This document shows, one piece after another, positions 26,250 through 48,697 of a DNA stretch of 64,000 nucleotides (the first letter of the stretch is position 1; the number at the start of each line of letters is the position of its first letter). The translations under genes and the position numbers were made by a program. A model generated the notes under the pieces. That model worked only from the letters and a program-made list of their open reading frames with translations. It had not been told where the DNA came from and searched no databases. This stretch comes from Dictyostelium discoideum (lineage: Eukaryota). The stretch lies in the NCBI GenBank assembly GCA_000004695.1, contig CM000153.2, positions 1,984,001-2,048,000 on the forward strand. The letters are read 5' to 3'.

Positions 26250-26689
26250 TTATTCATAAGATAAAATATTTAAAATATAATTTGCAAATGGTACAAGAGT
26301 TCTAATGACAGAGTTTGAAAAGAATTCAAATTCTACCAATGGTGATAAAAAGTTTTCTGATTCATTAAAGAAATCTTGATATGGTGAATAGATATTATTG
26401 GTTGATTTCTTTTTCAAATCAACGAGACTATCAGTGATTTGATTTAATAATTGAACATCTTTGATTGTTTTTTCACCATCTTTTTCTTTTCTTTGAACCA
26501 ATATTCTCTGTAAATATAATAAACATGCTCTTGCTGCTAAATGAGTCTGTACCATTATTGTCTTTTGTTTATTTGAAAATAATGATGTTATCTTATTACC
26601 AGCTGTTCCAAAATATGATGATATTGAATCTTTAAAATCTGAAATCTAATAAAAATAAAAATTATTAATAACTTTTTCCAAAATATTGA

Positions 26690-26748
<59 letters not shown>

Positions 26749-29700
26749 ACTTACAGATTGAATTAAATGTTTATTTTTAAAACTTGATTGAGATTGATTT
26801 TCAATTAATTTAATTACCAACATCCAAGATAACCAAAGTTCATATTCATGATTATTTCTAAAGGTAATATTAATTACATCTTGAATGAATTCAGAAAGAT
26901 TTAAAGTATCATTACGTTGACTTTGAATGGCTATAATATACATTAATAAATGACAATTCTCTTGGATACAAGTTTTCAATAATCTTGAAGGATTTTCATG
27001 ATTATTTGGGAAAATCAAGTATTTATTAATGAGATTTGTATTGTTTGTACCAGTGGAATTACTATTTTCATCACCTTCACCACCACCAATTCCCATTGAT
27101 TTATTGGTATCGATTGAGTAGAAAGATCTTAGAATATTATCAATGACTTTACAATAGTTAGACAATGATTGATTTAAAGTTAAATGAGCACAAGACATAA
27201 TTTGTAAACATAGATTAATTGAACATGAAGAACAGAATTGTAAGATTAAAGCAGAGATTTTACCATAGAGTTCTTTATTGGCATGATTATCATTTGAAAG
27301 ACCACTAATTGGGAAAATTGCAAATTTAATTAAACTTCTCATTGGATAAGAGATATCATCCAAACAAGATAATGTAACCTTTAATATTGATTTCATACGT
27401 TGTTGTGCACCAGAGATTTCAGTTGGTGAATTCTTTAAGATTTGATTATCGGCCAATGATCTAATCAATGGTAATAGAATTGTTTTCAATAATGATTCTT
27501 GCTCGGTATACTCTAAATGCCAATAGTTGGTTGGTGTTTGAATCACTAAATAAATCAATGACCTAATTTCCAATGCCAATGCAGTCGCTAAAGAATAATT
27601 ATCCAATAGTAGAGTTATATCTTTGAAAAGTGTTAAACAACTCATTATCAATTGATTTGGAGATTGTTGTTGACTTGATTGTACCAATGATGAACGAGTT
27701 AACAATTTAACGAATGAAGAACCATCGAAAATTAAGGAAGCCTCTGAAAGATCACCACATTTAAACCAATCTAAATTACCATCGGTTGCCAAGGATAATT
27801 TAAACTCTGGTGAAGTGATATTTGTGCCATTGACTATTGAAATGTACATACAAAGTTTCAAATAATTCAATGCTGTTTTATTTGATATTTTCGATTGTTT
27901 AAATAATAAACTCCAATCTAATATTGAAAATAATATTACCACAACATTACCAAATATAGTTTCCGATAGGATATAATTCATTTGTTCCAATGTATCACTA
28001 CTAATAATATGAAATACAGCCGATGATAAATGACCATCAATTGCCAACATACCAAAGAAATTAGTTATTGCATCTAAATATTGATTCTCAATCTCTTGAT
28101 CCATTAAATAGTGTTGATGTTGTTCTTGTTGTTTTTGTAATTGTTTTTCATAATTATCAGATGAGATTGAAGTTGGTGAATTTGAAATACTTGGTGACAT
28201 TATTGGTGAATTATTATTTGTAAATGATTCTAATAATGGTACATAAGAATTATAAAATACATCCCATAATAAATTTATACTCTTTGGTACCAACTTAATT
28301 AAATTTGTTAATAAATTAATTGATAATTTAAAATCTTGAATTGAAATTAATAAATTCTTATTATTATTACTTCCACCTTGTTGAACTATAGTAGATTTAA
28401 TTGAATTAATAATTGCATCTCTTGTATTATTTAAATGACCATCCAATGATTGAGAGGTAATAAATTCATAAGATAAAATATTATTTAATAAGAAAATGGT
28501 AGTGATTGAAGGAATCGCTGATTTTGGATTAGTTAAATAATCAATCATACTTGAAAGTTGCATTGTTCTTTGTTGTTGTAAATTTTCATTATCTTTGATT
28601 GCTTGATTTTGAAGAATTTCTTTATAAAATATTGATTGTTTACCATTAATAATATTACAAATTAATAATTGTGATTTTGTATCTTTTAAATAGTTATTAT
28701 TATTATTATTATTATTTAAATGATCATTATTATTATTATTATTATTAAAACTATCTAAAATAATATCAAAAATATTAAATATTAAAATCATATCATTTCT
28801 TAATAATTGGGAAGTAATTAATTCTACAACATCAATTAAAACTGGTAATTGAATACATAATTGTAATAAATTAAGTAAACAATTTTTACCATTGTTTAAT
28901 TGTAAAATCAATGGTATTCTTTCATCCAATTTGAATGATAAAATTATTTTCTTTAAATCACTCTCTTTTGATAATAAAGTTGGTAAAGTTGTTATAACTC
29001 TTTGGAAAATATCAATATATTCATGAATATCTGATATTTTACTTGGTTGAAATAATTGAATGAAAATTGAATAATCTTTTACACTATCAATATTTTCAAC
29101 TTTATCTTTTTGTGATTGGCCACCACCACCACTATTTGTAATTGTTTTTGATGAAGATTTCTTTAAATTATTTGAAGCTTGTGATGGTAGCATTGGTAAA
29201 AATGTATCAATTAAAAAGAATTGATTATCATTATTTTCATTAATTAAAATTTTACCAATCTTTAAAGTAATCTCTGTAAAGAAAGGTATGAAAATTGATT
29301 TATGAATTGAATCTTGATAATCAGACATTAGGGATATTAAAAATTTGAAAAGGTTCTCTTTTTGTTGATACTTTTTAAATTGTGAAATGAATTGATTATC
29401 TTCCATCATACTTGAGAGAATTGTTAATTGATGAACTTTTTCGAAAAAGTTATAATAATCATCAGAGAATTGTTTTCTATTTTCAGAGATTTTCAATGCA
29501 ACATCTTCATTGTTTATAGATTTCTTTAGTTTTAATGTCATCTCAACACCAATACATCTTGAATAAGAGCATTTAATTATTTGAGTGATTTCATTGATTT
29601 CAGTTGTATATAACTTTTCACTTTTACTTAAAAATTCTTTATCATCTTGTAAAATCGATCTTGATAATGATTTACTTTGACCTAAATATTGTCTAATATC

Positions 29701-32238
29701 TCTAAAGAATTTAATTGAATCAACAGTTTGTAAATCATGACCATTATTATCTAATTCTTTTTTAATATTATTACATGTATTTTTAAAATTTAAATATTTT
29801 TTATATTCTTCATTATTATCATTAAAATTATTAATTTGTTGTTTTTGTTGAGGTTGCTGTTGAGATTGTTGTTGTTGTTGTTGTGATGGTTGTTGTTCTT
29901 TTTTAATATTTAAATATTGTAAAATTATTTGGTCTGGTGATAAATTTAAATTTTGATTTTTTAACCATTGTTTTTGATTAATATCATATTTCTTTAAATC
30001 AATATGATCAGATAATTCATATGGAAGATTATTTGATAATAGTAAATTATATAATTGTACATTTTGAGGATGAATTAATCTTTTATTGAATGGTAGAGTT
30101 GATTGTAAATTCCAAAGTTCAAATGATTCGAAAATTCTTTTAATTATTGGATTAATTGGACCTTTATAAGATGATTTAGTGTATGGATGTACTGCTGATG
30201 AAATTAAATGATTCTTAAAATCTGTACTTAGCGTTTCAACACCTTTACTACCAATGATACCATCATAATAGATTACCCAAAAATGTTCCCAAAATATCAT
30301 AGAGATTGGTTCTGTCTTTAAACTCATTGCTAAATCCTTTAACAATACCAATGATTCCTTTCTAGTTGATGATGAAACATTTTGTTTACCTCTAGTATAA
30401 GCTCTTGCTAAAAAATAAACTAACCATGGTCTTCTTTCAACTAATTTTAATAATACTTTACTATTTGGAACTATATTTGGTGTATCTTGTAATAATGAAT
30501 CAATAATTTCATTAACTAAATCATTATTATTATTATTATTATTACTTTGTTGTTGTTGTTGTTGTTGATTTGATGAATTCATTGTTGAAGAATTTAAAGA
30601 TAATTTTAAAGATTTAAAGAAAGAAGAAGCAAATAAATTATTTAAGATTGCCATATTCTCTTCAGAATTAATATTTGATTTCATTAGGTAAACCCATGAA
30701 GTTATGTTCTTTATTAATGAATGATCAGTAAAGAATTGTGGTGATGATTGAATGAACCAAATCTTTAATGTATCCAATAAGACATTGAAACCAATAGAGA
30801 AATCATTCTTTGATAATGTAACCATTTTAAAGATTTCATCAACTTCACTTTGTACAATGAATGGAGTTGATCTGAAAATGTAAATAACTGAACATAGAAT
30901 ACTTGAAGTAAATTCAAAACCGTATGGGTTATTATTATTATTACAAATTTGATTAATTTTTGGCATAGTTTGAGTTAGAATATTATAAGCTTCTTGAATA
31001 TTTGAATCTACCATTTCAATATAGTAATTTGCAAGTTGTAATGATAATAAAATTTGAATAAATAAAAATAAACCATTATCATTTTTAAAATCTAAACTAT
31101 TGAAATCAATATGTATCATTTGTTTTATCATTTGTACATTTGTTTCATTTGATAATAATATTTTTGATCTTAATAAAAATTTAATAATATTTCTAATTGG
31201 ATTACTAAAAGCTTGTATTGGTTGTTGTTGTTGTGGTTGTGGTGGTTCTTTTAAAACTGATAAATGTTTACGTGAACCTAATAAAAATAATATAATTTTT
31301 AATTTTGAAATTGATGAAACTTTATTCCAATTGGTTGTTGATAATACTTTAAAAACTACATCAGATGCAATTGAAACATTTTGATAATTAATTCTATACT
31401 GTTCCATTTCATTTGCTTGAGATGTAAATAATAATGGTTCAATCACTAAATTCATTAAACAATCTGGTTGAATGAATTCATTATCCATTAAAGTTGGTAT
31501 CATTTTATGTGATAAAATTAATGCTAACCAATGAATACCATCACCAGACATATCCCAAAAATATAATGGATTATTATAATTACCACTTGATAATGGATCA
31601 ATACCACTGCTATTGCTACTACTACTACTACTACTACTATTACTTGGACGAATAAATGATGTAAAAGATTCAATATCTAAATATAATAAATTTTGAGAAA
31701 CATTAAACATGAATCTATTTACTAAATGTGGTTGACTTTGTAATAATATAAATAATTGATTAAAAATTTCAGATTTAAAAATTGGATATAAATTTTGAAT
31801 TACATTAGAGGTTGCACTATCAACACTACCATTTAAATAATTTTGTGATCTTGATACAAATGCAAAATAAAATAATTCATCAAATATTAATCTTGATAAA
31901 TTAAATTTTAAACCACCATCAAGTTGTAATGATTCCTCATCTTGTTGTTGTTGTTGTTGTTGCTGTTGTTGCTGATTAAGATTATATTGATTTGAAAATT
32001 GATTTGCAATTCTACCAAGTAATGTTAATTGTGGGAATTTACAAGAATTATTAATTTCTGCAATAGTTAAATCCTTATGATATGATTGTTCAACCAAGTA
32101 TTGATATCTAAACATTGTTTGAAAGAATTGATTTCTAATTGGTAATTTATCATTAAAATTACGACCATAATAATTTTGTGGAGAAATTGTTAATTGATAA
32201 ACATCACAAAACATACTACTCATTGTATTCATTTCCAT
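26250..32238 (-). CDS. Very large helical (HEAT/ARM-like) protein of unknown family with poly-Q/N inserts; exons 26755..32238 (possibly extended to 32349) and 26250..26645; at least 1959 aa
   Basis: A 5.5-kb ORF, 26740..32238, ends at a GTAAGT donor (plus 26749-26754, phase 0). A 109-nt intron containing a 45-nt homopolymer ends at the acceptor TTATTAG|ATT at 26646-26647. It continues in frame through ORF 26250..26555 to a stop at 26250. The 5' end may be spliced to the upstream ORF (see findings). Confidence 0.75.
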
Positions 32239-32356
32239 ATCTTCCCAATTAACTAATGGTAATACTAAACAACCAATAAATTGTGATGGCCAAATACTTT
32301 TAAATAAAATATTAATTGTATTATCAATTTTAAAATAATATGTTAATATCTATTAT

Positions 32357-32407
<51 letters not shown>

Positions 32408-32451
32408 TAATAATTTATTTTATTTTATTTATTTATTTATTTAATTATTTA

Positions 32452-33626
32452 TTATATGTTTATACATACACATAAAATTTTTGAAATTAAAATTGATAAT
32501 CTTATCATATTCTTTGAAATTGATAAAGTTAAACCATTTTGAAGTGGTGTATATAATTTATCAATTATATTTAAATTTCCAAAGTCATTACTATTGATGG
32601 TATTTAATTTTGTGAAATCAATTTGTAATAAAAGATTTACATATTGTGTTTCTGTTAATATTCTATTATTATTTGGATTAAATAATTTAATTAACCAATC
32701 CTTTTTGAAAATATCAAATAAACTTGGATGAATTAATGTATATCCCCATTCTAAAAAATCTGGATCTAAATTATCTTTTAATGATTTTGTAAAGTTTTCA
32801 ATCTCTTTATTGATAACACTATCTTCACTATGATGATGATGGTCATTACTACCAATATCTATTGATTCAACACTTAATAAATCATTAAATAATGTCATAC
32901 CTCTAACTCTTTGTACTGGTGCTCTACCTCCCCCCTCAATTATTTCACCATTTTCTATTAGCTCAGCATATTTAAATAAATACATTGATAATTGATTTAC
33001 AATAGTTTGTAAATTATCTGGTAATGTAAGTTGTTTAAATATTTTAATTACTGATTCTAAAATTATTATTATATTTTGTAATGATTCTAAATTTGGTTTT
33101 ACATATTGTTGTTGTGATTGTGATTGTGATTGTGATTGTTGTGAATTATTAAATGATAATGATTGTTTTAAATTATCAATATCAATAAATTTATAGATAT
33201 AATAATTTAAACGATGTTGATTTAAAGTTTGTGTAAAGAAACTTGCAATAACTTCAGTGGTATTATAAGAGTGATTTTGAGTAAAGATTGAAGCCAATTG
33301 TTTTGCAACATTTTCATTAATAGTATAATATTGATTTGAAATCGTATGTTTCAATAATGAACCACATGGACAATAATCTTGAACTTCTACAGGTACATCA
33401 TTAAATCTCCATAGGTTTTTATATAGATCTCTAATCTCTACTTCATTCTTTAATTTCTCTGATTGAATTGCACTCTGAATCACTGTAGAATCTAATAATT
33501 CCATTAATAATCCTTCAAACTTTTCAACATAAAATCTATTCTCTTCAATATTATGAATTTCATTTAAAATTTGTTGTTTTTCTTTTTCTTGTTGTTGATA
33601 TTGTTGTTGTTGTTGTTGTTGTGGAT

Positions 33627-33658
<32 letters not shown>

Positions 33659-33917
33659 CGTTGTTGTTGTGAATTTGATGATGGTGATAATAAAGACTCT
33701 ATATCATCAAATGGATTAAAGTGATTGAAATGTTGTGTTTGTGTTTGTTGTGGTTGTAGTTGTGTCTGTTGTGTCTGTTGTGTCTGTTGTGGTTGTGTTT
33801 GTTGTGGACTTAAAAATCCATTAAAAAATGCATTTGCTTCTGTAATATTATTGGTTTGTCCTGCATTTGAAGTTGTGGTTGTTGTAGTTGTTGTAGTTAG
33901 GTTTGTTTGGTTTGTAC

Positions 33918-33948
<31 letters not shown>

Positions 33949-33993
33949 GCCCTTATTATTAGGGCTATATGGATCAAAGTCGAATAGATCCAT
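32452..33993 (-). CDS. N/Q-rich protein (513 aa as a stand-alone ORF); probably the 5' exon of the downstream 26250..32238 gene
   Basis: ORF with ATG at 33991-33993. Its last codons (ATT TTA TGT | GTATGT ATA AAC ATA TAA) contain a consensus donor at phase 0, only 6 codons before the stop. The next ORF's ATG lies just 214 bp downstream. Confidence 0.7.
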
Positions 33994-34141: not shown

Positions 34142-34568
34142 AAAAAAGAAAAAAAAAAGAAAATAAAAAAAATTTAATTTAATTTAAAAAAAAATGGGTT
34201 GGGACTGGGTAAAACAAAAAAATTATTAGGTGCTAAATATCAATACTGTTACAACGACGTTTTTTCAAATAAGAACATTATTAAAAAATGAATAATTTTT
34301 TTTTTTTTTTTTTTTAGTTTTTTTTTTTTATTTAATAATCATTATTTTATTTTTCTTATTTGTTGAAACTCTTTTTCCTTTTTTTTTGTTTTATTTTATT
34401 TTTTATTTTTATTTTTATTTTTTTTTTTTTTTTTTTTTTTTTTTTGATTGTAAAAAATTTTATTAGGTTTTAATAAAATAAAATTTCTCATCTAGATGAA
34501 AAGCAAATCTTAAAAAAAAAAAAAAGATATTTTTATTATAAAAAAAAAGACCATGCTCCAAAAATAAA

Positions 34569-34608
<40 letters not shown>

Positions 34609-34713
34609 GGTGTAATTTTTTTTTTTTTTTTTTTTTTGGTCTTTTTTTTTATAATAAAAATATCTTTTTTTTTTTTTATTTGTATTTAAACCACCCATCA
34701 AAAAAAAAAAAAA
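33994..34713. promoter_or_regulatory. Divergent (bidirectional) intergenic/promoter region between the 33993 minus-strand start and the 34714 plus-strand start
   Basis: 720 bp of A/T and oligo(A)-purine tracts (aaaagaaaagaaaag) separate two start codons on opposite strands. There is a short C-containing patch (aaaccacccatc) just 5' of the 34714 ATG. Inferred from the gene arrangement only. Confidence 0.4.
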
Positions 34714-36655
34714 ATGACAAATAATAAAAACGAAAATGAAAGTAATAATCAATTGGAATCAAGACATACAAAAAAAAAACAAAAAACTAATCACAATGAA
34801 ACAAAAGAAACAATTGATGTTATAATTGAAAAAACAACAACAACAATTCACAACTTAGAAAACCTCAATATAGAAGAATTGAATAAATTTAAACAAATTG
34901 AATTATTAGAAATTGTAAAATCATTTTCAAAGAAAACTAATAATAGAAAAAAGAAATCAGAATTAATTGAAATTTTAAAAGAAGAGATTGAGAATCGTAA
35001 ACTATTAATACAAGAAAATGAAAATAAAATTAAAAATAATAACCCATTTAATAAAAACTTTAAAGAATTATTAATAAAAGATGTTGATAATAATGAATTA
35101 TTATTTTGGAAAATTTTTAGAAATAAAGTTTTATTTAAAAATATAATATCAAAATTTGAATTTAAACATTTTTCACAAAATTATGATTCAATGATATCAA
35201 TTCATAATTTACTAGCAAATGATAAAATTTCAATTGTAAAAGATAAAGTAAACAATAATAGTAAATACCTTGTATTTACTCCATCATCATATGGTACAAA
35301 TGGTACATCAACTACAATAACAACAACAAATCTTTATCAAACTTTTAGTATTATATTTTCAAAATTTCAAACTGATGATCTTGATACTTATAATTTCTTT
35401 AAAAATTTATTTAAAAATTATGGTAATAAATTCATTGAAGAATTAAAATATATTAAATTTATAAATGGTGATGGTGATGGTAATGGTAATGATGATAGTG
35501 ATGATGATAGTGATGATGATAGTGATGATGATAGTGATGGTAATGGTAATGATGATAGTAATGATGATAGTGATGATGATAGTGATGATGATAGTGATGG
35601 TAATGGTAATGGTGATGGTAATGGTAATGATGATAGTGATGATGATAGTGATGATGATGGTGATGGTAATGGTAATGGTGATGGTAATGGTAATGATGAT
35701 AGTGATGATGATAGTGATGACGATGATAGATATTTTTGTTCAACTGATTTTATTAGGACTATGATAATTTATAATTGTGTGCCAGCAGTGAAGGTATTAA
35801 TGAATGAATTTAATTTTATTCCAACTGTTGATAATTTCTTTAAAAAAGTTGTTGGATATGGTTCATTAGAAATTTTAAAATTTTTATTAATTAATGATGA
35901 AAATCAAGAAAGAAGAAATAAATTAATTTCTCAATTGAAATCAAAAAAAAGTCATTTACAAATTTGGAGAGAAATTTCATCATCAACTTTATTTCAAGGT
36001 TTTTATGGTCCATTGAATATGAATTATAAAATAGAGAAATTTAAAACAATTTTATTTTTACTTGAAAATAATTATTTAAAAATTCCTCAAAAAAATGAAG
36101 ATTTAAATGATATTAAAGTATCATTATATTCAACTTCACCAATTACAAATTATTTATTATTAAAAGATTTAATATTAAGTTGTAAATTATTAAATCAATT
36201 ATTAAATAATAATACAAATAATAATAGTTATTATGATGAAATTATTAAAAAATTTACAAATAAACAATTAGAATCAATGTTAAAAGATTTAATTAATTGG
36301 GAACTAAATGAAAATGAAAATAAACAGATTATAAAAGATTTATTAAATTATTGGTATAGGGAAAGTGGTACTTCAAAAATTGATTATGAATTTTATTTAT
36401 GTTTTGATAAACTAGAGAATGATAAAGAAATAAGGTCAGTTCATAAAACAAACTTTATATTAGCATTACAATATGGAAATTTTGAAATTCTAATGAAATC
36501 AGTCCCAAATCAATTTGGTTTAAAGGAATTTGAAAGAACTGTAATAACATATGATATCGATATTCAACATAAACCAAATTATCTATTTACTCATTGTCAT
36601 AATAAAGAGAAACAAAAGGAGTTTATTTCATCTTGGATTCAATATATTAGTATTG

Positions 36656-36704
<49 letters not shown>

Positions 36705-37851
36705 TAGTAGTGGTGGTGGTTTTTGTTTAAATTATTATTATTATTATATTTTACTTATTTTAATTCAAAATGACGATATTGAATTATTAAAATTTTCAAT
36801 TAATAAGTTACCACTTGATAAATTAATTATAAATTTTGAAAAACATAATAATATTATAATTTCAGATTATATAAAATCAGTTGAAATGTTAGAATTCCTT
36901 TATAAAGAATATGGTTCAAATAATATTTTAAAACCTTGTTTACAAATATTTCTTTTACATCTTTCAAATTTAGAATTATTAAAATGTTTTGAAAAATTGG
37001 AAAATTTATCATCAAAAAGGAGAATTGTTTTATTAGAAGATAATGTTAAAAAATGTGTTTTCAATTTACCAATGGTTTCTCATATTATTAAAAATGTTGA
37101 AAATATTTATGAAATTAAAGAATTTGCATTTAAAGGAATATTTAATGATATTGATAATAATCATGAAAATCAAATAGATGAATTAATTAATTTATTACAA
37201 TATATAGTTAAATTTACAGATATTAAAATTAATACATTTTTAAATTATTACTATACAAACTTTATATTATTCACTAAAATACCAAATTTTAAAATTTTAA
37301 AATTTATTGATTGGTTAATTTCAATTAACTATTCAATTATTAATGATGGGTTTTTTTGTGAAAATAAATTAAAAATATTAAAATATTTAGTTGGTAGAAT
37401 TCAAGAAATTGATGAATTCTTTCCAGACAAGTGGATAAATTCAGGTGGTGGTAATATTTACCCTTTAGCTAAATTTATAGTTTTAAAATGTGATTTAGAT
37501 GCATTGGATTTAATAATGAAAGAAATTAATAATTCAAATAAAGCTATCAAAAATGATGATATATCAAATTTCATTTTCATTCTGTTAGGATTTGCATGTG
37601 AAATTGGTCAATTAAAAATTTTAGAACATATTAAATTACACCATTGTCAACTATTTAATAAGAAATCAAAAAGTGGTGGTTGGTTCTCTCAAATTCAATT
37701 AAACTCTTTAATAAATAAATCAATTATTTCAAATCATATCAATTGCACTGAATTTCTATTACAATATTCAACTATATCTCAATCACAATTTAAAAAAATT
37801 ACTGCTAAATCTGGTATTTCTTATACTTATTTTAAAAATAAAATAAAATAA
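34714..37851 (+). CDS. Uncharacterised 1045-aa protein with an acidic (GDGNGN/DDSDDDSDDDSD)n tandem repeat (nt 35459..35745) and poly-N; single exon
   Basis: Uninterrupted ORF 34714..37851 with no recognisable catalytic motif. The repeat unit, ggtaatggtaatgatgatagtgatgatgatagtgat, recurs about 8 times. Confidence 0.7.
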
Positions 37852-43461: not shown

Positions 43462-45157
43462 ATGACACTAATTCAAAATGAACATCCAGAAATTAGTAAT
43501 ATAATAAATAATATTCAACAAAATCAAAAGAATAATAAAATCAATGATTTGAAAAATTTTTTAGAGAATTCAAAACATTTTGGTGATTTTAGAAAATACT
43601 TAATTGAAAAGAATAAGTATTCATTGGCATCAATGTTACAATGTTATGAATCGATTCAATCATTTAAACAATCATTTTTAGTAGATAATCCACCATTTAA
43701 TTTAAAATTAGCAAATGATATCATATCAACCTTTTTAATTAAACCAACAAATTCAAACGTTTCACCAAACTCGAGTAATTCAAATTTATTTTCAAATAAT
43801 AATAATAATAATAATAATAATGGAACAGGATCATCATCATCATCATCATCACCACCACAATCACAACAACCATCATCATCTTCATTTTATATTGGTTTCA
43901 TTGATGCAAGTGTTTATAATAGTTTAAAAGCTTTATTAGATCCATTGTGGCAAAAACCAACTTCTTCAATTTCTTTAAATAGTTCTGTTAATACAACAAC
44001 AACAACAGCAGCAACAACAACATCTAATAACCCATTATCAACATCATCATCAAGTATTGGTGCTGGTGGTTCATTATTTGATTCATCACCATTAGATTCT
44101 GATTCTGATTTATTTGGTACCCCAACAACACCAGTACCAATACCAACACCAACAAAAACAACAACAACATCAACAGTTGAGGATCCAGAAGAACCAACTA
44201 AAGAACAAATAAATAAACAAAAAGAGATTAAAGATGATTTATCAACACATGTCACCCATAATTTATTCGATATATTAATTGAATTCTTAATATTCAAATT
44301 AGAGCCTGAATTTAGAAAATATATGGCCATAATTACTCCAAATGTATGTTTTTAATTTATCCTTATTATTATTATTATTCTTTGTTTTAAATTTATATAT
44401 ATTTTTTTTTCATTTTTTTTATTTGAAAGTTTTAAAAAGTTGGATCCTTTTTGGAAGATCCTGGGAAAGGCCAAAAAAAAAAATAAAAATAAAAAAAAAA
44501 ATAAAAAAAAAAGAAAAGAAAAAAAAAAAAATAAAAAAAAAAGAAAAAAAAAATTTTATAATTTGACCTAAATTTGCTGATTTTCATATACTGACCTTTT
44601 TTTTTTATTACTTTTAGAACGAACAAAGTTTTAACCCATTAAATAGTAATAATAATAATAACAATAATAATAATAATACAAATACAAATTCAAATATGGT
44701 ATTTGAATCACCATTAACACCAAAGAAAGAGGAAGTTGCAGCCAATTTTTATATAAATAATTTAAATAACAGTAGTAATAGTATAAACTATAATAGATTA
44801 GAAGGAGAGAATAGAATAGTATGGTTTGGAGATCAAGATCATATTCCAGTTTACTATGTGGATCATTTAGGTGGTGCAATAATTCAAGCATTACTATATA
44901 TAACCGAATTTAGATTCCTATTCATTAGTAAACTAACTATGACCGAATTAACATGGATACCATTAGCAACAGTTTATCGTATTGAAAGAGTAACAAGTTT
45001 TAGGTTTGACAGTGCAATTTCAATATGGGGTAAAAATTTTAGGAGGATTGAATTTCATATTGATCCAAAAGAGTTTAAACAACAATCATTTAATACATTA
45101 GGTGGTATTTCTGTAAATAATAATAATAATAATAACAATAGCAATAATAATAATAAC

Positions 45158-45188
<31 letters not shown>

Positions 45189-46822
45189 TGAATAATGGTA
45201 TGAATAATGGTTCACCTTATATTAATGGTGGTAATAATGGTGAATATATTGGTGATATCACTCAACCAATTATATTTAGAATGAGAATATTTGCTTTTCA
45301 AGATGTATCAAATTTATTTGCATTCAAATATTCACCAAATAAATCACAATTACAAGATGGTTGGAGAATATTAAATGATTTTGGTGAATGGTTACGTCAA
45401 GGAATTCTATCAGAGACAGCAGGTTACAATATGAAATGGCGTTACTCTGAAAAGAATATTGAATATATTAATCCAACCTATCCAAAATGGTTGGTTGTAC
45501 CACATAATATTTCCGATGAAGAAGTTGGTATTTGTATGAATTTCCGTTCAAAAGGTCGTATTCCAGCATTATCTTGGATAAGTAGAGATGGTGTACCTTT
45601 GGCACGTTCATCACAACCAATGGTTGGTATCACTAGACAAAAGAGTGTTGTTGATGAAAAGTTGGTGGATTCAATTCGTATGGCTTGTCCAAGTGGTAAA
45701 TCATTATTCCTATTGGATGCTCGTCCAAAAGCAAATGCAATTGCAAACGTTGCAAAAGGTATGGGCTATGAATTGAATTACAATTGTGATATTGAATTCC
45801 TTGGTATTGCAAATATTCATTCAATGCGTGACTCTATCAATAAATTGGAACAATTTTGTCAATCAAATAACGATGAAAATTGGTTAAGTGGTCTTAATGA
45901 AACTCGTTGGTTAGATCATATTCGTACACTTTTATTAGGTGTAGCCAGAGCAGTCAGTCTCATCAATAAAGGTCATCCAGTTTTATTGCATTGTAGTGAT
46001 GGTTGGGATAGAACTTCTCAACTCTCCTCTCTAACTATGATCATTCAAGATCCATACTTTCGTACTATTGAAGGTTTCCAAGTTTTAATCGAAAAGGAAT
46101 GGTTAAGCTTTGGTCATTGCTTTATGAATCGTGTAAGACATGGTGATCGTAATTGGTACTCTGATAGTCAACGTTCACCAGTATTCCTTCAATTTATCGA
46201 TTGTGTTTATCAATTAATGAATCAATATCATGACTACTTCCAATTCAATGAAAACTATTTAATTACAATCTTGGATGCCCTTTACTCTTGTCAATTTGGT
46301 ACATTCCTTTGTAATAGTGAAAAGGAAAGACAAACTATTAAAAAGGATACAGTATCACTTTGGAGTTATATAAATTCAAATCCATTGACTCCCTATCTAA
46401 ATCCATTCTATATTTCCTATGAACATGAAACATCAAGAGCTTTCCATTTACCAGAATGGAGAAGTGAACATATTACCCTATGGAAAGGTTATTACCTTCG
46501 TTATTGGAGAAATCCATTAAAGGAACCAATGGATTGGCAAAAGGTCTCCATTGGTTTAAAACTTAAAAACAATCATCTCTTACGTCAAATCCAAGATTTA
46601 ATACTTCAAAATCAACAATTAACATTGGATAATTTATCATTACAAGAAGAAAAGTACAAACAAACTCAAGAAGTTGAAAATGAGAAATTAGAAAATCAAG
46701 AAAAAGAAAAAAGTGATCATAGTAAAAAATTAAATCAAGAAAATGATATCACCATACCACTCAATAATGAAACTATATTAAACGAAAGTGAACCTGTTGT
46801 AGAAAATGAAATAAATCAATAA
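43462..46822 (+). CDS. Myotubularin-related phosphoinositide 3-phosphatase (GRAM/PH + PTP domain, CSDGWDRT active site, C-terminal coiled coil); 2 exons 43462..44343, 44618..46822 (~1028 aa)
   Basis: LLHCSDGWDRTSQLSSLTMIIQDPYFRTIEGFQVLIEKEWLSFGH is the myotubularin CX5R catalytic loop. A GRAM-like RIVWFGDQDHIPVYYVD...TWIPLATVYRIERV lies upstream. Exon 1 (ORF 43462..44355) ends at a GTATGT donor at 44344 (phase 0). The acceptor TTTTAG|AAC at 44616-44617 is in frame with ORF 44696..46822 and no stop intervenes. Confidence 0.8.
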
Positions 46823-46961: not shown

Positions 46962-47441
46962 TTAAAATTTAAAATAAAAAGAACTTGGATAAACCATTGG
47001 TATTTTAATTAGACCATTCAAAACTTGATCTAAAAATGATATTGGATTTGTTGTTGATGATGATGATGACGATGATGATGGTATTGAGTGTTGCTGATTT
47101 AATTTCTTTTGAATAAATTCACAAAATTTAAAAAGTGGGAAATAGTTTATAAGTTCTTGATTTTGTGATTGTTGATGTTGTTGATATCTTTGTTCTTGTT
47201 GGTGATTAATACCATTTGCATTGATATTGTTATTGTTATTATTATTTTTATTGATTACTATTAAATCTATTAATTTAACAATTAAATTACAAGAGAAAAT
47301 AAAAGATTCCAATATTTGCTTTGTATCTAAAGGAACTGTATGGTTGATAGATTTTGATTGAATATTTAAAAGTAATTGATATTTTTGTTCTAATTGTCTG
47401 AAAATTAATGATTTACTTAAAAATCTCTTTAATAATATTTC

Positions 47442-47519
<78 letters not shown>

Positions 47520-48697
47520 GCCATCATCGTTGCATTCTAATAAAAATGATTTCAAATTTAAAATATTAAATAAATATTTCTCATGTAATAATATAAAATC
47601 TTCTTGGAATTGAAGTGATCTTTCTTGCTGTGAACTTGCTTTTAGAGAAACAATAGATGTATGATAATTTGATAATTGATTTAATATCTTTGAATTATTA
47701 TTATTATTGTTATTATTAGTGTTGTTTTTATTGGTGGTGATGCTATAAATTGAAATTTCATTCTCTAAAGTTGCAATAGATAATAAACCTTTTAACCAAA
47801 GGTAATTACATTCAGATTCAACTTTATGAATTAAAGTTGAATAAATAACCATTGCGATCTTATGAAATCCATGACGTTGTGATAATTGTGCTAAATTATA
47901 ACAACTCCATAATTGATCAGGTTTTGGATTCTCTAAAATATATTGTATCAATGGTAATAGTTGCTCTGTTATCTCTTGAATCTTTTGATTATTTTCATCA
48001 AATGTTTTAAATATACACATAAAAATTGACATCTAAAATAATAATAATAATAATAACAATAATAATATATTAATAAATGTTTTTTTAAAAATTTAGAATT
48101 AAAATTAAAATTTTTTTAATACATACAGGTATTGAATATTTACAATCTTGCTTATTTATTCCATTACTAATACCATTGTTATTTCTATTAATGATGTTAT
48201 TATTATTATTGTTACTATTATTATTATTATTATTATTATTATTGAAATTATTGTTTATTAACTGTACACTATTTTCTTTAATAATTAAATTATTTAAATA
48301 ATCTAATATTAATTTAAACCAACCATTTTGATTTAAAACCGATTTATTCATTGGTATACACATTGATAGACAATGGAATAATGATTTTAAAATTGAATCT
48401 TTAATTTATAAAAAAAAAAAAATTAGTAACAAACAATAAATAAAAAAAAATGGAAAATAAAAAAATAATACATACAAGGTATTTCATTTAATAGTGATAT
48501 AATTGTAGTTGTAATTGATTTTAATGGTTTTGGATCCTTTTTAATTAATCTAATTATTGATTTTAAAAAAACTGATGTTTTATTTAATGTTGATTTATTT
48601 TCATTAATATTAGTATTGTTATTTGTTGATGTTGTAAATTGAGTTTTTAATATTACACATATATTATTCACTGTTTGATTCAATATTGATTCTATTA

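Follow-up and report, generated by a model that had tools for sequence, protein, structure and literature searches.

Within the 64,000-nucleotide (nt) window of Dictyostelium discoideum DNA analysed here, two open reading frames (ORFs) lie one behind the other on the minus strand between positions 26250 and 33993, raising the question of whether they are separate genes or parts of one, and of what kind of protein they encode. On comparative evidence, this interval is a single three-exon protein-coding gene, DDB_G0284475, and its product of 2504 amino acids (aa) is best explained as a diverged protein of the EPG5 family, most likely an EPG5-like tether, a reading to which we give a probability of roughly 0.8. 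Human EPG5 is the Vici syndrome protein, and both it and its Caenorhabditis elegans counterpart EPG-5 are Rab7-effector tethers for autophagosome-lysosome fusion.

By exact-sequence look-up, the fused 2504-aa protein is on record as EAL65164.1, XP_638514.1 and UniRef100_Q54PL8 ("hypothetical protein DDB_G0284475"), a D. discoideum AX4 entry that establishes where the DNA comes from, and it is also recorded as KAM9942913.1 from a second D. discoideum assembly (GCA_054883475.1), where one gene call of 7718 nt encodes 2504 aa. The splice junction adds nothing new, since the public gene model already includes it; the gain lies in recognising what the gene encodes. A first-pass annotation, made from the letters of the window, had proposed that the two ORFs are joined by an unannotated intron into a protein of no recognisable family. 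The gene structure, every coordinate and the length of 2504 aa stand, but the intron is not unannotated, because the fused model reproduces the public model XP_638514.1/Q54PL8 exactly, and the family can be recognised, as a family profile ties the protein to EPG5 and orthologues match the Pfam family Epg5_N. None of the papers searched mentions DDB_G0284475 or Q54PL8. In the one paper among them that contains both EPG5 and Amoebozoa, EPG5 features solely as a partner of mammalian WIPI3/4; in a review of LC3-interacting regions (LIRs) that also mentions Dictyostelium, the EPG-5 passages concern C. elegans.

Gene model

The features of the locus, in window coordinates, are as follows.

26250..33993, minus strand: DDB_G0284475, whole gene, with three exons, two introns and a 2504-aa product
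32470..33993, minus strand: exon 1, 1524 nt, residues 1-508
32350..32469, minus strand: intron 1, 120 nt, phase 0, after the Cys508 codon, GTATGT...(48-nt T run)...AATAG, guanine-cytosine (GC) content 3.3%
26755..32349, minus strand: exon 2, 5595 nt, residues 509-2373, starting 37 codons upstream of the ORF-finder ATG at 32238
26646..26754, minus strand: intron 2, 109 nt, phase 0, GTAAGT...TTAG, GC 6.4%
26250..26645, minus strand: exon 3, 396 nt, residues 2374-2504 and the stop codon

Joined, the exons (1524 + 5595 + 396 nt) translate into 2504 codons with zero internal stops, and every exon boundary given by the first-pass annotation is confirmed in the sequence. The upstream ORF (32452..33993) ends in ...AAA ATT TTA TGT/GTATGT ATA AAC ATA TAA, where the slash marks the exon boundary; the final exon base is 32470, the donor G of intron 1 is at 32469, and the stop follows six codons further on, so that the phase-0 donor had been read correctly. 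The acceptor reads ...AATAATAG/ATA TTA ACA, with its AG at 32351-32350 as part of an in-frame TAG (32352-32350), giving the proposed intron length of 120 nt. From this acceptor down to the ATG at 32238 there are 37 in-frame codons, and the distance of that ATG from the stop of the upstream ORF is 214 nt, as had been noted. Intron 2 joins the 5.5-kb ORF to the final 131 codons.

Intron 1 has the properties of Dictyostelium GT-AG introns, namely the donor type, an A/T-rich tract before the AG, a restored reading frame and a distinct composition. An open frame across the junction is possible with ten GT..AG pairs spaced 50-400 nt apart, and only one of them, 32469/32350, has a consensus donor. 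The same pair is the only one to retain all 37 conserved codons 5' of ATG 32238, as the acceptors of the other nine lie at 32265 or farther downstream and each cost at least 28 of the 37. In addition, the GC content is 3.3% in intron 1, compared with 18.9% in the 111 nt from acceptor to ATG, 24-25% in the exons and 22% in the whole window. The sole consensus donor among the ten pairs, the contrast in GC content and the conserved codons before the ATG together indicate that intron 1 is more than a chance arrangement.

Conservation across the junction

The orthologue of Acytostelium subglobosum has 2286 aa and is 34% identical over 94% of the D. discoideum query. The alignment runs unbroken over the junction (KILC/ILTYYF..IWPSQFIGC in D. 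discoideum, KIVC/LIGFYF..IWPSQLISC in A. subglobosum), which argues that the codons 5' of ATG 32238 are coding. These 37 codons are conserved at the protein level, including the IWPSQ motif, and the stretch ILTYYF..IWPSQFIGC is shared with A. subglobosum and Protostelium. The conserved junction for which the first-pass annotation had suggested looking is present in Acytostelium, Heterostelium and Cavenderia, each with a phase-0 intron at the homologous codon (locus names: L001, A. subglobosum DF837586.1; L002, Cavenderia fasciculata GL883024.1; L003, Heterostelium album GL290994.1).

A. subglobosum, L001 4777-4862: 86 nt, phase 0, after the homologous Cys codon, aag atc gtc tgt/GTAAGT...GACAG/ttg att gga
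H. album, L003 6699-6770: 72 nt, phase 0, homologous codon, aaa att gtt tgt/GTAAGT...ATATAG/tta att agt
C. fasciculata, L002 7597-7674: 78 nt, phase 0, homologous codon, aaa ata tta gct/GTATGT...GTTTAG/ttg ata tca

The position of intron 1 is therefore common to four dictyostelid genera (Dictyostelium, Acytostelium, Heterostelium and Cavenderia). Long single-frame high-scoring segment pairs in tblastn had pointed to the absence of a junction intron in Heterostelium and Cavenderia, a reading that was rejected on finding in-frame stops and the GT..AG introns of 72 and 78 nt. The A. subglobosum gene (L001 3001-10277) has six introns compared with two in D. discoideum, and only the first is shared in position; D. 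discoideum intron 2 has no counterpart in A. subglobosum, whose last intron sits elsewhere.

Beyond the dictyostelids, residues 508/509 are bridged collinearly by a transcript-derived ORF of Protostelium (2261 aa), by genome-predicted proteins of Balamuthia and Pelomyxa, and by two environmental contigs. Support at the transcript level is indirect, through single transcript-derived ORFs in Protostelium and Pyxidicula. In the AlphaFold2 model, the exon junction 508/509 falls within a predicted helix (H353-366) whose predicted local distance difference test (pLDDT) values are ~85-92, and the surrounding 10-residue blocks have pLDDT values of 82-93.

Orthologues in the form of two proteins, which the first-pass annotation had named as evidence against a fusion, are formally seen in H. 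album, where the orthologue is annotated as adjacent same-strand genes (L003 4680-7194, 773 aa; L003 8001-12020, PPL_10188, 1110 aa). This split is an annotation artefact and the two models should be merged, because it lies elsewhere than the D. discoideum junction and because an open frame with continuous homology (L003 6771-8198) crosses the annotated gap.

The annotated C. fasciculata protein DFA_09209 (L002 gene 6001-13635, 1757 aa) corresponds to D. discoideum residues 149-509, after which the match resumes only at 1117. The ~600 residues absent from it are encoded in the Cavenderia locus, as seen by tblastn, and the break in the model coincides with the conserved intron.

Relationship to EPG5

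Homologues were collected with an exhaustive HMMER search (E <=1e-3) whose query was an alignment of the last 1154 residues with the corresponding part of the Acytostelium protein. The search returned 51 proteins, of which all named ones are amoebozoan and labelled "hypothetical", from taxa including Cavenderia, Heterostelium, Synstelium, Protostelium, Soliformovum, Rhizamoeba, Arcella, Pyxidicula, Balamuthia and Pelomyxa. A word-indexed search (with the whole protein, the low-complexity-masked pair and the 51-sequence alignment) returned only the query and Acytostelium, its 8000-candidate prefilter probably being swamped by the Q/N-rich query. Full-length members of the family have 2226-2699 aa, and the most widely conserved part is the C-terminal end encoded by exon 3, with the consensus LAARAC..FF.E...FLSPL...TLVPFA.YL. 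It was the size of the protein and this consensus that first pointed to EPG5.

The human EPG5 sequence used for comparison (2579 aa) was written out by hand and not drawn from a database record, and its provenance was then tested. It contains WTLV at 550 and WILL at 567, which we take to be the positions of the two human EPG5 LIR motifs. It also agrees with Byrne et al. 2016 (PMC4766378) at 33 of the 33 reference residues of their Table 1, which span positions 46-2483.

A profile built from 18 amoebozoan homologues matched human EPG5 with 53.4 bits in HMMER, in five collinear segments running from the N-terminal module to the C-terminal end. As controls, 600 globally or locally shuffled copies were searched; HMMER reported 388 of the 600, and the best score among those reported was 5.0 bits. 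The five segments are given below.

D. discoideum 182-308, human EPG5 313-432: HMMER domain 1, independent E-value (i-E) 9e-10
D. discoideum 599-668, human EPG5 759-803: HMMER, weak, collinear
D. discoideum 996-1127, human EPG5 1085-1192: HMMER, weak, collinear
D. discoideum 1406-1679, human EPG5 1557-1801: HMMER domain 4, i-E 1.9e-12
D. discoideum 2225-2500, human EPG5 2308-2578: HMMER

Using hhalign, residues 1410-2504 were aligned with EPG5 1561-2578 over 812 columns at a probability of 97.2% (E 4.4e-11). Alignment of human EPG5 to the family model with hmmalign placed one segment only and was not used for mapping. Evidence independent of this human sequence comes from precomputed matches to Pfam PF27745 (Epg5_N) in three orthologous models: the Pelomyxa orthologue has a match not marked weak (E <=1e-5), and the matches of Cavenderia DFA_09209 and of the Heterostelium model covering the N-terminus are weak. 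Through these matches, databases already capture the amoebozoan link to EPG5 in part. From the profile alignments and the predicted structures described below, we infer that the amoebozoan proteins are orthologues of EPG5.

Predicted architecture

The two halves of the protein were modelled with AlphaFold2 as separate jobs, giving a mean pLDDT of 71 and a predicted template-modelling score (pTM) of 0.59 for residues 145-1340, and a mean pLDDT of 75.6 and a pTM of 0.64 for the C-terminal half. Both models are mostly helical, and each has one module in which two long helices flank a beta hairpin. The predicted regions are, from the N-terminus:

Residues 1-145, exon 1: low-complexity N/Q/T-rich disordered tail
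Residues ~156-269, 33187..33528, minus strand: module 1, helix-hairpin-helix, proposed thumb half 1; pLDDT 80-89; H12-48, E51-63, E69-81, H83-125
Residues 349-391, 32821..32949, minus strand: disordered loop; pLDDT <50 at model residues 205-247
Residues ~392-1283, 30025..32820, minus strand: all-helical region, proposed "hook", holding intron 1; blocks 331-480 with pLDDT 82-93
Residues ~1284-1350: disordered Q-rich linker preceding module 2
Residues ~1388-1490, 29404..29712, minus strand: module 2, helix-hairpin-helix with C-x4-C-x-G, proposed thumb half 2; H38-69, E72-83, E93-104, H106-140
Residues ~1491-2504, 26250..29403, minus strand: C-terminal helical "shaft", holding intron 2

In human EPG5, the layout determined by cryo-electron microscopy and AlphaFold comprises a thumb formed by residues 288-533 and 1524-1709, a helical hook (534-1519) enclosed by these two distant halves, a flexible linker (1391-1523) ahead of the second half and a helical shaft (1710-2579) (PMC12087653). 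Each thumb half contains a coiled coil and beta strands, an arrangement called unique to EPG5 (PMC12087653). The two hairpin modules of the D. discoideum protein are exactly the segments that match the EPG5 thumb halves. In the predicted models, the split-thumb layout, with two modules around a helical region and then a shaft, is thus reproduced in the Dictyostelium protein, the two modules having been modelled separately.

The resemblance to human EPG5 (Q9HCE0) extends to the overall size (2504 aa versus 2579 aa), the disordered N-terminus, the two modules of coiled coil and beta hairpin (matching 313-432 and 1557-1801) with a large helical region between them, the disordered linker before the second thumb half, and the shaft, which aligns to the very C-terminus. 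The differences are a pairwise identity below detection, the Q/N/S low-complexity insertions of the D. discoideum protein, and the lack of a tandem Trp-type LIR. With CATCHR-type tethers (subunits of exocyst, COG, GARP and Dsl1), the protein shares elongated alpha-helical bundles for vesicle tethering, an analogy drawn for EPG5 in PMC12087653; unlike it, the CATCHR families have no intertwined thumb, and neither a sequence match nor a specific fold match to them was found here. Searches of both models against PDB folds gave generic HEAT/ARM matches only, the best being to scaffolds such as importin-beta/CRM1, CAND1, symplekin, Integrator INTS4/7 and nucleoporins.

Proposed mechanism

In the proposed sequence of events, the spliceosome would remove intron 1 and join the 508 upstream codons, with the phase-0 frame kept, to the downstream ORF at a point 37 codons ahead of its first ATG. 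The product would then run from a disordered N-terminus through thumb half 1, a disordered loop, a hook of ~900 residues, a linker and thumb half 2 to a shaft of ~1000 residues. According to PMC13388713, which cites Wang et al. 2016, EPG5 binds Rab7-GTP and Atg8-family proteins and promotes assembly of STX17-SNAP29-VAMP7/8; its recruitment, its capture of autophagosomes and its role in fusion are likewise attributed to Wang et al. 2016 in PMC13388713 and PMC7615515. By homology, tethering is the most likely function of the Dictyostelium protein, which may be recruited by Rab7 to late endosomes or lysosomes as animal EPG5 is, capture Atg8-bearing autophagosomes and promote SNARE-mediated fusion.

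Loop motif and alternative readings

The tandem LIR of human EPG5 lies within residues 541-581, with W567 named, and a tandem Trp LIR is described in all annotated EPG5 orthologues (PMC12087653). The D. discoideum loop 349-391 occupies the same relative place as the human tandem-LIR loop, and a motif resembling L-phi-x-phi-[DE] is kept in it across Amoebozoa (NDLLSVE, NLVDLD, NLLLLD, SLISLE, ALVDFD and similar). In D. discoideum the motif is placed as follows.

Residues 372-376, 32866-32880, minus strand: LLSVE, within 367-TLFNDLLSVE-376

The conserved motif could be read as a clathrin box no less than as a degenerate LIR. The core TLFNDL at 367-372, which resembles an F-type LIR, is found in D. 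discoideum only and is not conserved in the family.

Several observations weigh against the assignment to EPG5. The tandem Trp-type LIR was not found in the amoebozoan loop by inspection of the alignment block or by motif scan; the human EPG5 sequence was written out by hand and is validated only indirectly, by the 33/33 residues and the LIR positions; in pairwise comparison the D. discoideum protein does not match human EPG5 significantly (E 0.025 in a set of 51 sequences); and the D. discoideum protein itself has no Epg5_N match on record. The Pelomyxa homologue, with a pairwise E of 7e-7 to human EPG5, is the only exception to pairwise matches that are near noise, and this weakness of the pairwise signal explains the "hypothetical" labels.

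Of the alternatives, the one that survives best, though unlikely, is that the protein is a true EPG5 homologue working differently, either with no LIR-based binding of Atg8 or at another endolysosomal or phagosomal fusion step. The missing tandem Trp LIR speaks in its favour, as do the strong divergence of the sequence and a conserved aliphatic-acidic motif that is as close to a clathrin box (L-phi-x-phi-[DE]) as it is to a LIR. What favours an EPG5-like tether instead is that the protein keeps the overall architecture as well as the C-terminal shaft, which is conserved best, and that the D. discoideum loop holds the F-type LIR-like core 367-TLFNDL-372.

It is more improbable still that the fused gene encodes an Amoebozoa-specific helical scaffold, or a solenoid like those of Mediator, Integrator or nucleoporins, with a convergent or compositional likeness to EPG5. 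A scan of single sequences against Pfam and a PDB sequence search with the D. discoideum protein gave no match, nor did PDB sequence searches with a two-sequence profile, a 19-sequence profile or human EPG5, and ten homologues scanned against Pfam were also without a match. The empty scan of the ten homologues and the purely amoebozoan, "hypothetical" naming of the family would fit such a scaffold. The Pfam copy used for the scan, however, lacks the Epg5_N model, because human EPG5 itself was unmatched there. Moreover, the profile matches EPG5 collinearly along its full length with a score far higher than those of the shuffled controls, hhalign gives a probability of 97%, orthologues match Epg5_N, and the split thumb architecture is reproduced. 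The Mediator, Integrator or nucleoporin type of scaffold, put forward in the first-pass annotation, thus finds no support, and the profile points to EPG5.

Finally, it is very improbable indeed that two independent genes lie here, one of 513 aa ending at the TAA at 32452 and one of 1959 aa beginning at the ATG at 32238, with the GT..AG pair a coincidence: although each ORF has its own ATG and stop and the H. album annotation shows two models side by side, exact-sequence look-up found no record of either stand-alone product and only the fused one, the 37 codons 5' of ATG 32238 are conserved whereas the six codons past the donor are not, the intron position is kept in four genera, in homologues, a transcript-derived ORF among them, one protein spans the junction, the junction lies inside a predicted helix, and the H. 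album split is elsewhere and bridged by an open frame.

Neighbouring sequence

A perfect 29-nt inverted repeat, AAGATATTTTTATTATAAAAAAAAAGACC, is located at 34524-34552 (plus strand) and 34638-34666 (minus strand), with an 85-nt spacer and A/T-run extensions; no repeat of this kind is expected by chance. It lies within the 720-bp divergent intergenic region between ATG 33993 and a plus-strand ORF at 34714-37851. This divergent neighbour (1045 aa) has a match to the SAC3 helical domain only, which is sub-threshold (22.6 bits versus a cut-off of 25), and the records of the second assembly list no Pfam match for it. Elsewhere in the window, the ORFs 46962-48032 (minus), 44696-46822 (plus), 21913-22605 (minus), 57403-60786 (minus) and 52413-53999 (plus) have clear Pfam matches to an Integrator subunit 7 helical bundle, myotubularin phosphatase, CTLH/CRA, protein kinase and ADP-ribosylglycohydrolase, and several of these five look like single exons of larger genes.

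Implications

The value of the analysis lies in identifying the gene product: a gene labelled "hypothetical" in D. discoideum and across the amoebozoan genomes examined appears to be EPG5. EPG5 is described as metazoan-specific in recent structural work (PMC12087653 and PMC7935953), a description with which the amoebozoan assignment sits uneasily. It could be speculated, at somewhat less than even odds, that EPG5 is not metazoan-specific and that a full-length orthologue with split thumb, hook and shaft occurs throughout Amoebozoa (Dictyostelia, Variosea, Tubulinea, Discosea and Archamoebae), with an ancestral loop motif that was perhaps L-phi-x-phi-[DE] and not a tandem Trp LIR. The tether would therefore predate the split between Amoebozoa and animals, and an ancestral aliphatic-acidic motif would imply a different or additional partner, through either non-canonical Atg8 binding or clathrin.

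For the annotation of amoebozoan genomes, the analysis flags two orthologues as mis-annotated, Cavenderia DFA_09209, which is ~600 residues short, and the Heterostelium gene, which is split in two. If confirmed, the assignment would date the EPG5 family back to the ancestor that Amoebozoa and animals share, and would mean that the tandem Trp LIR is not universal in the family. It would also supply a missing fusion factor to research on Dictyostelium autophagy and, if true, would make Dictyostelium a genetically tractable model for the biology of Vici syndrome.

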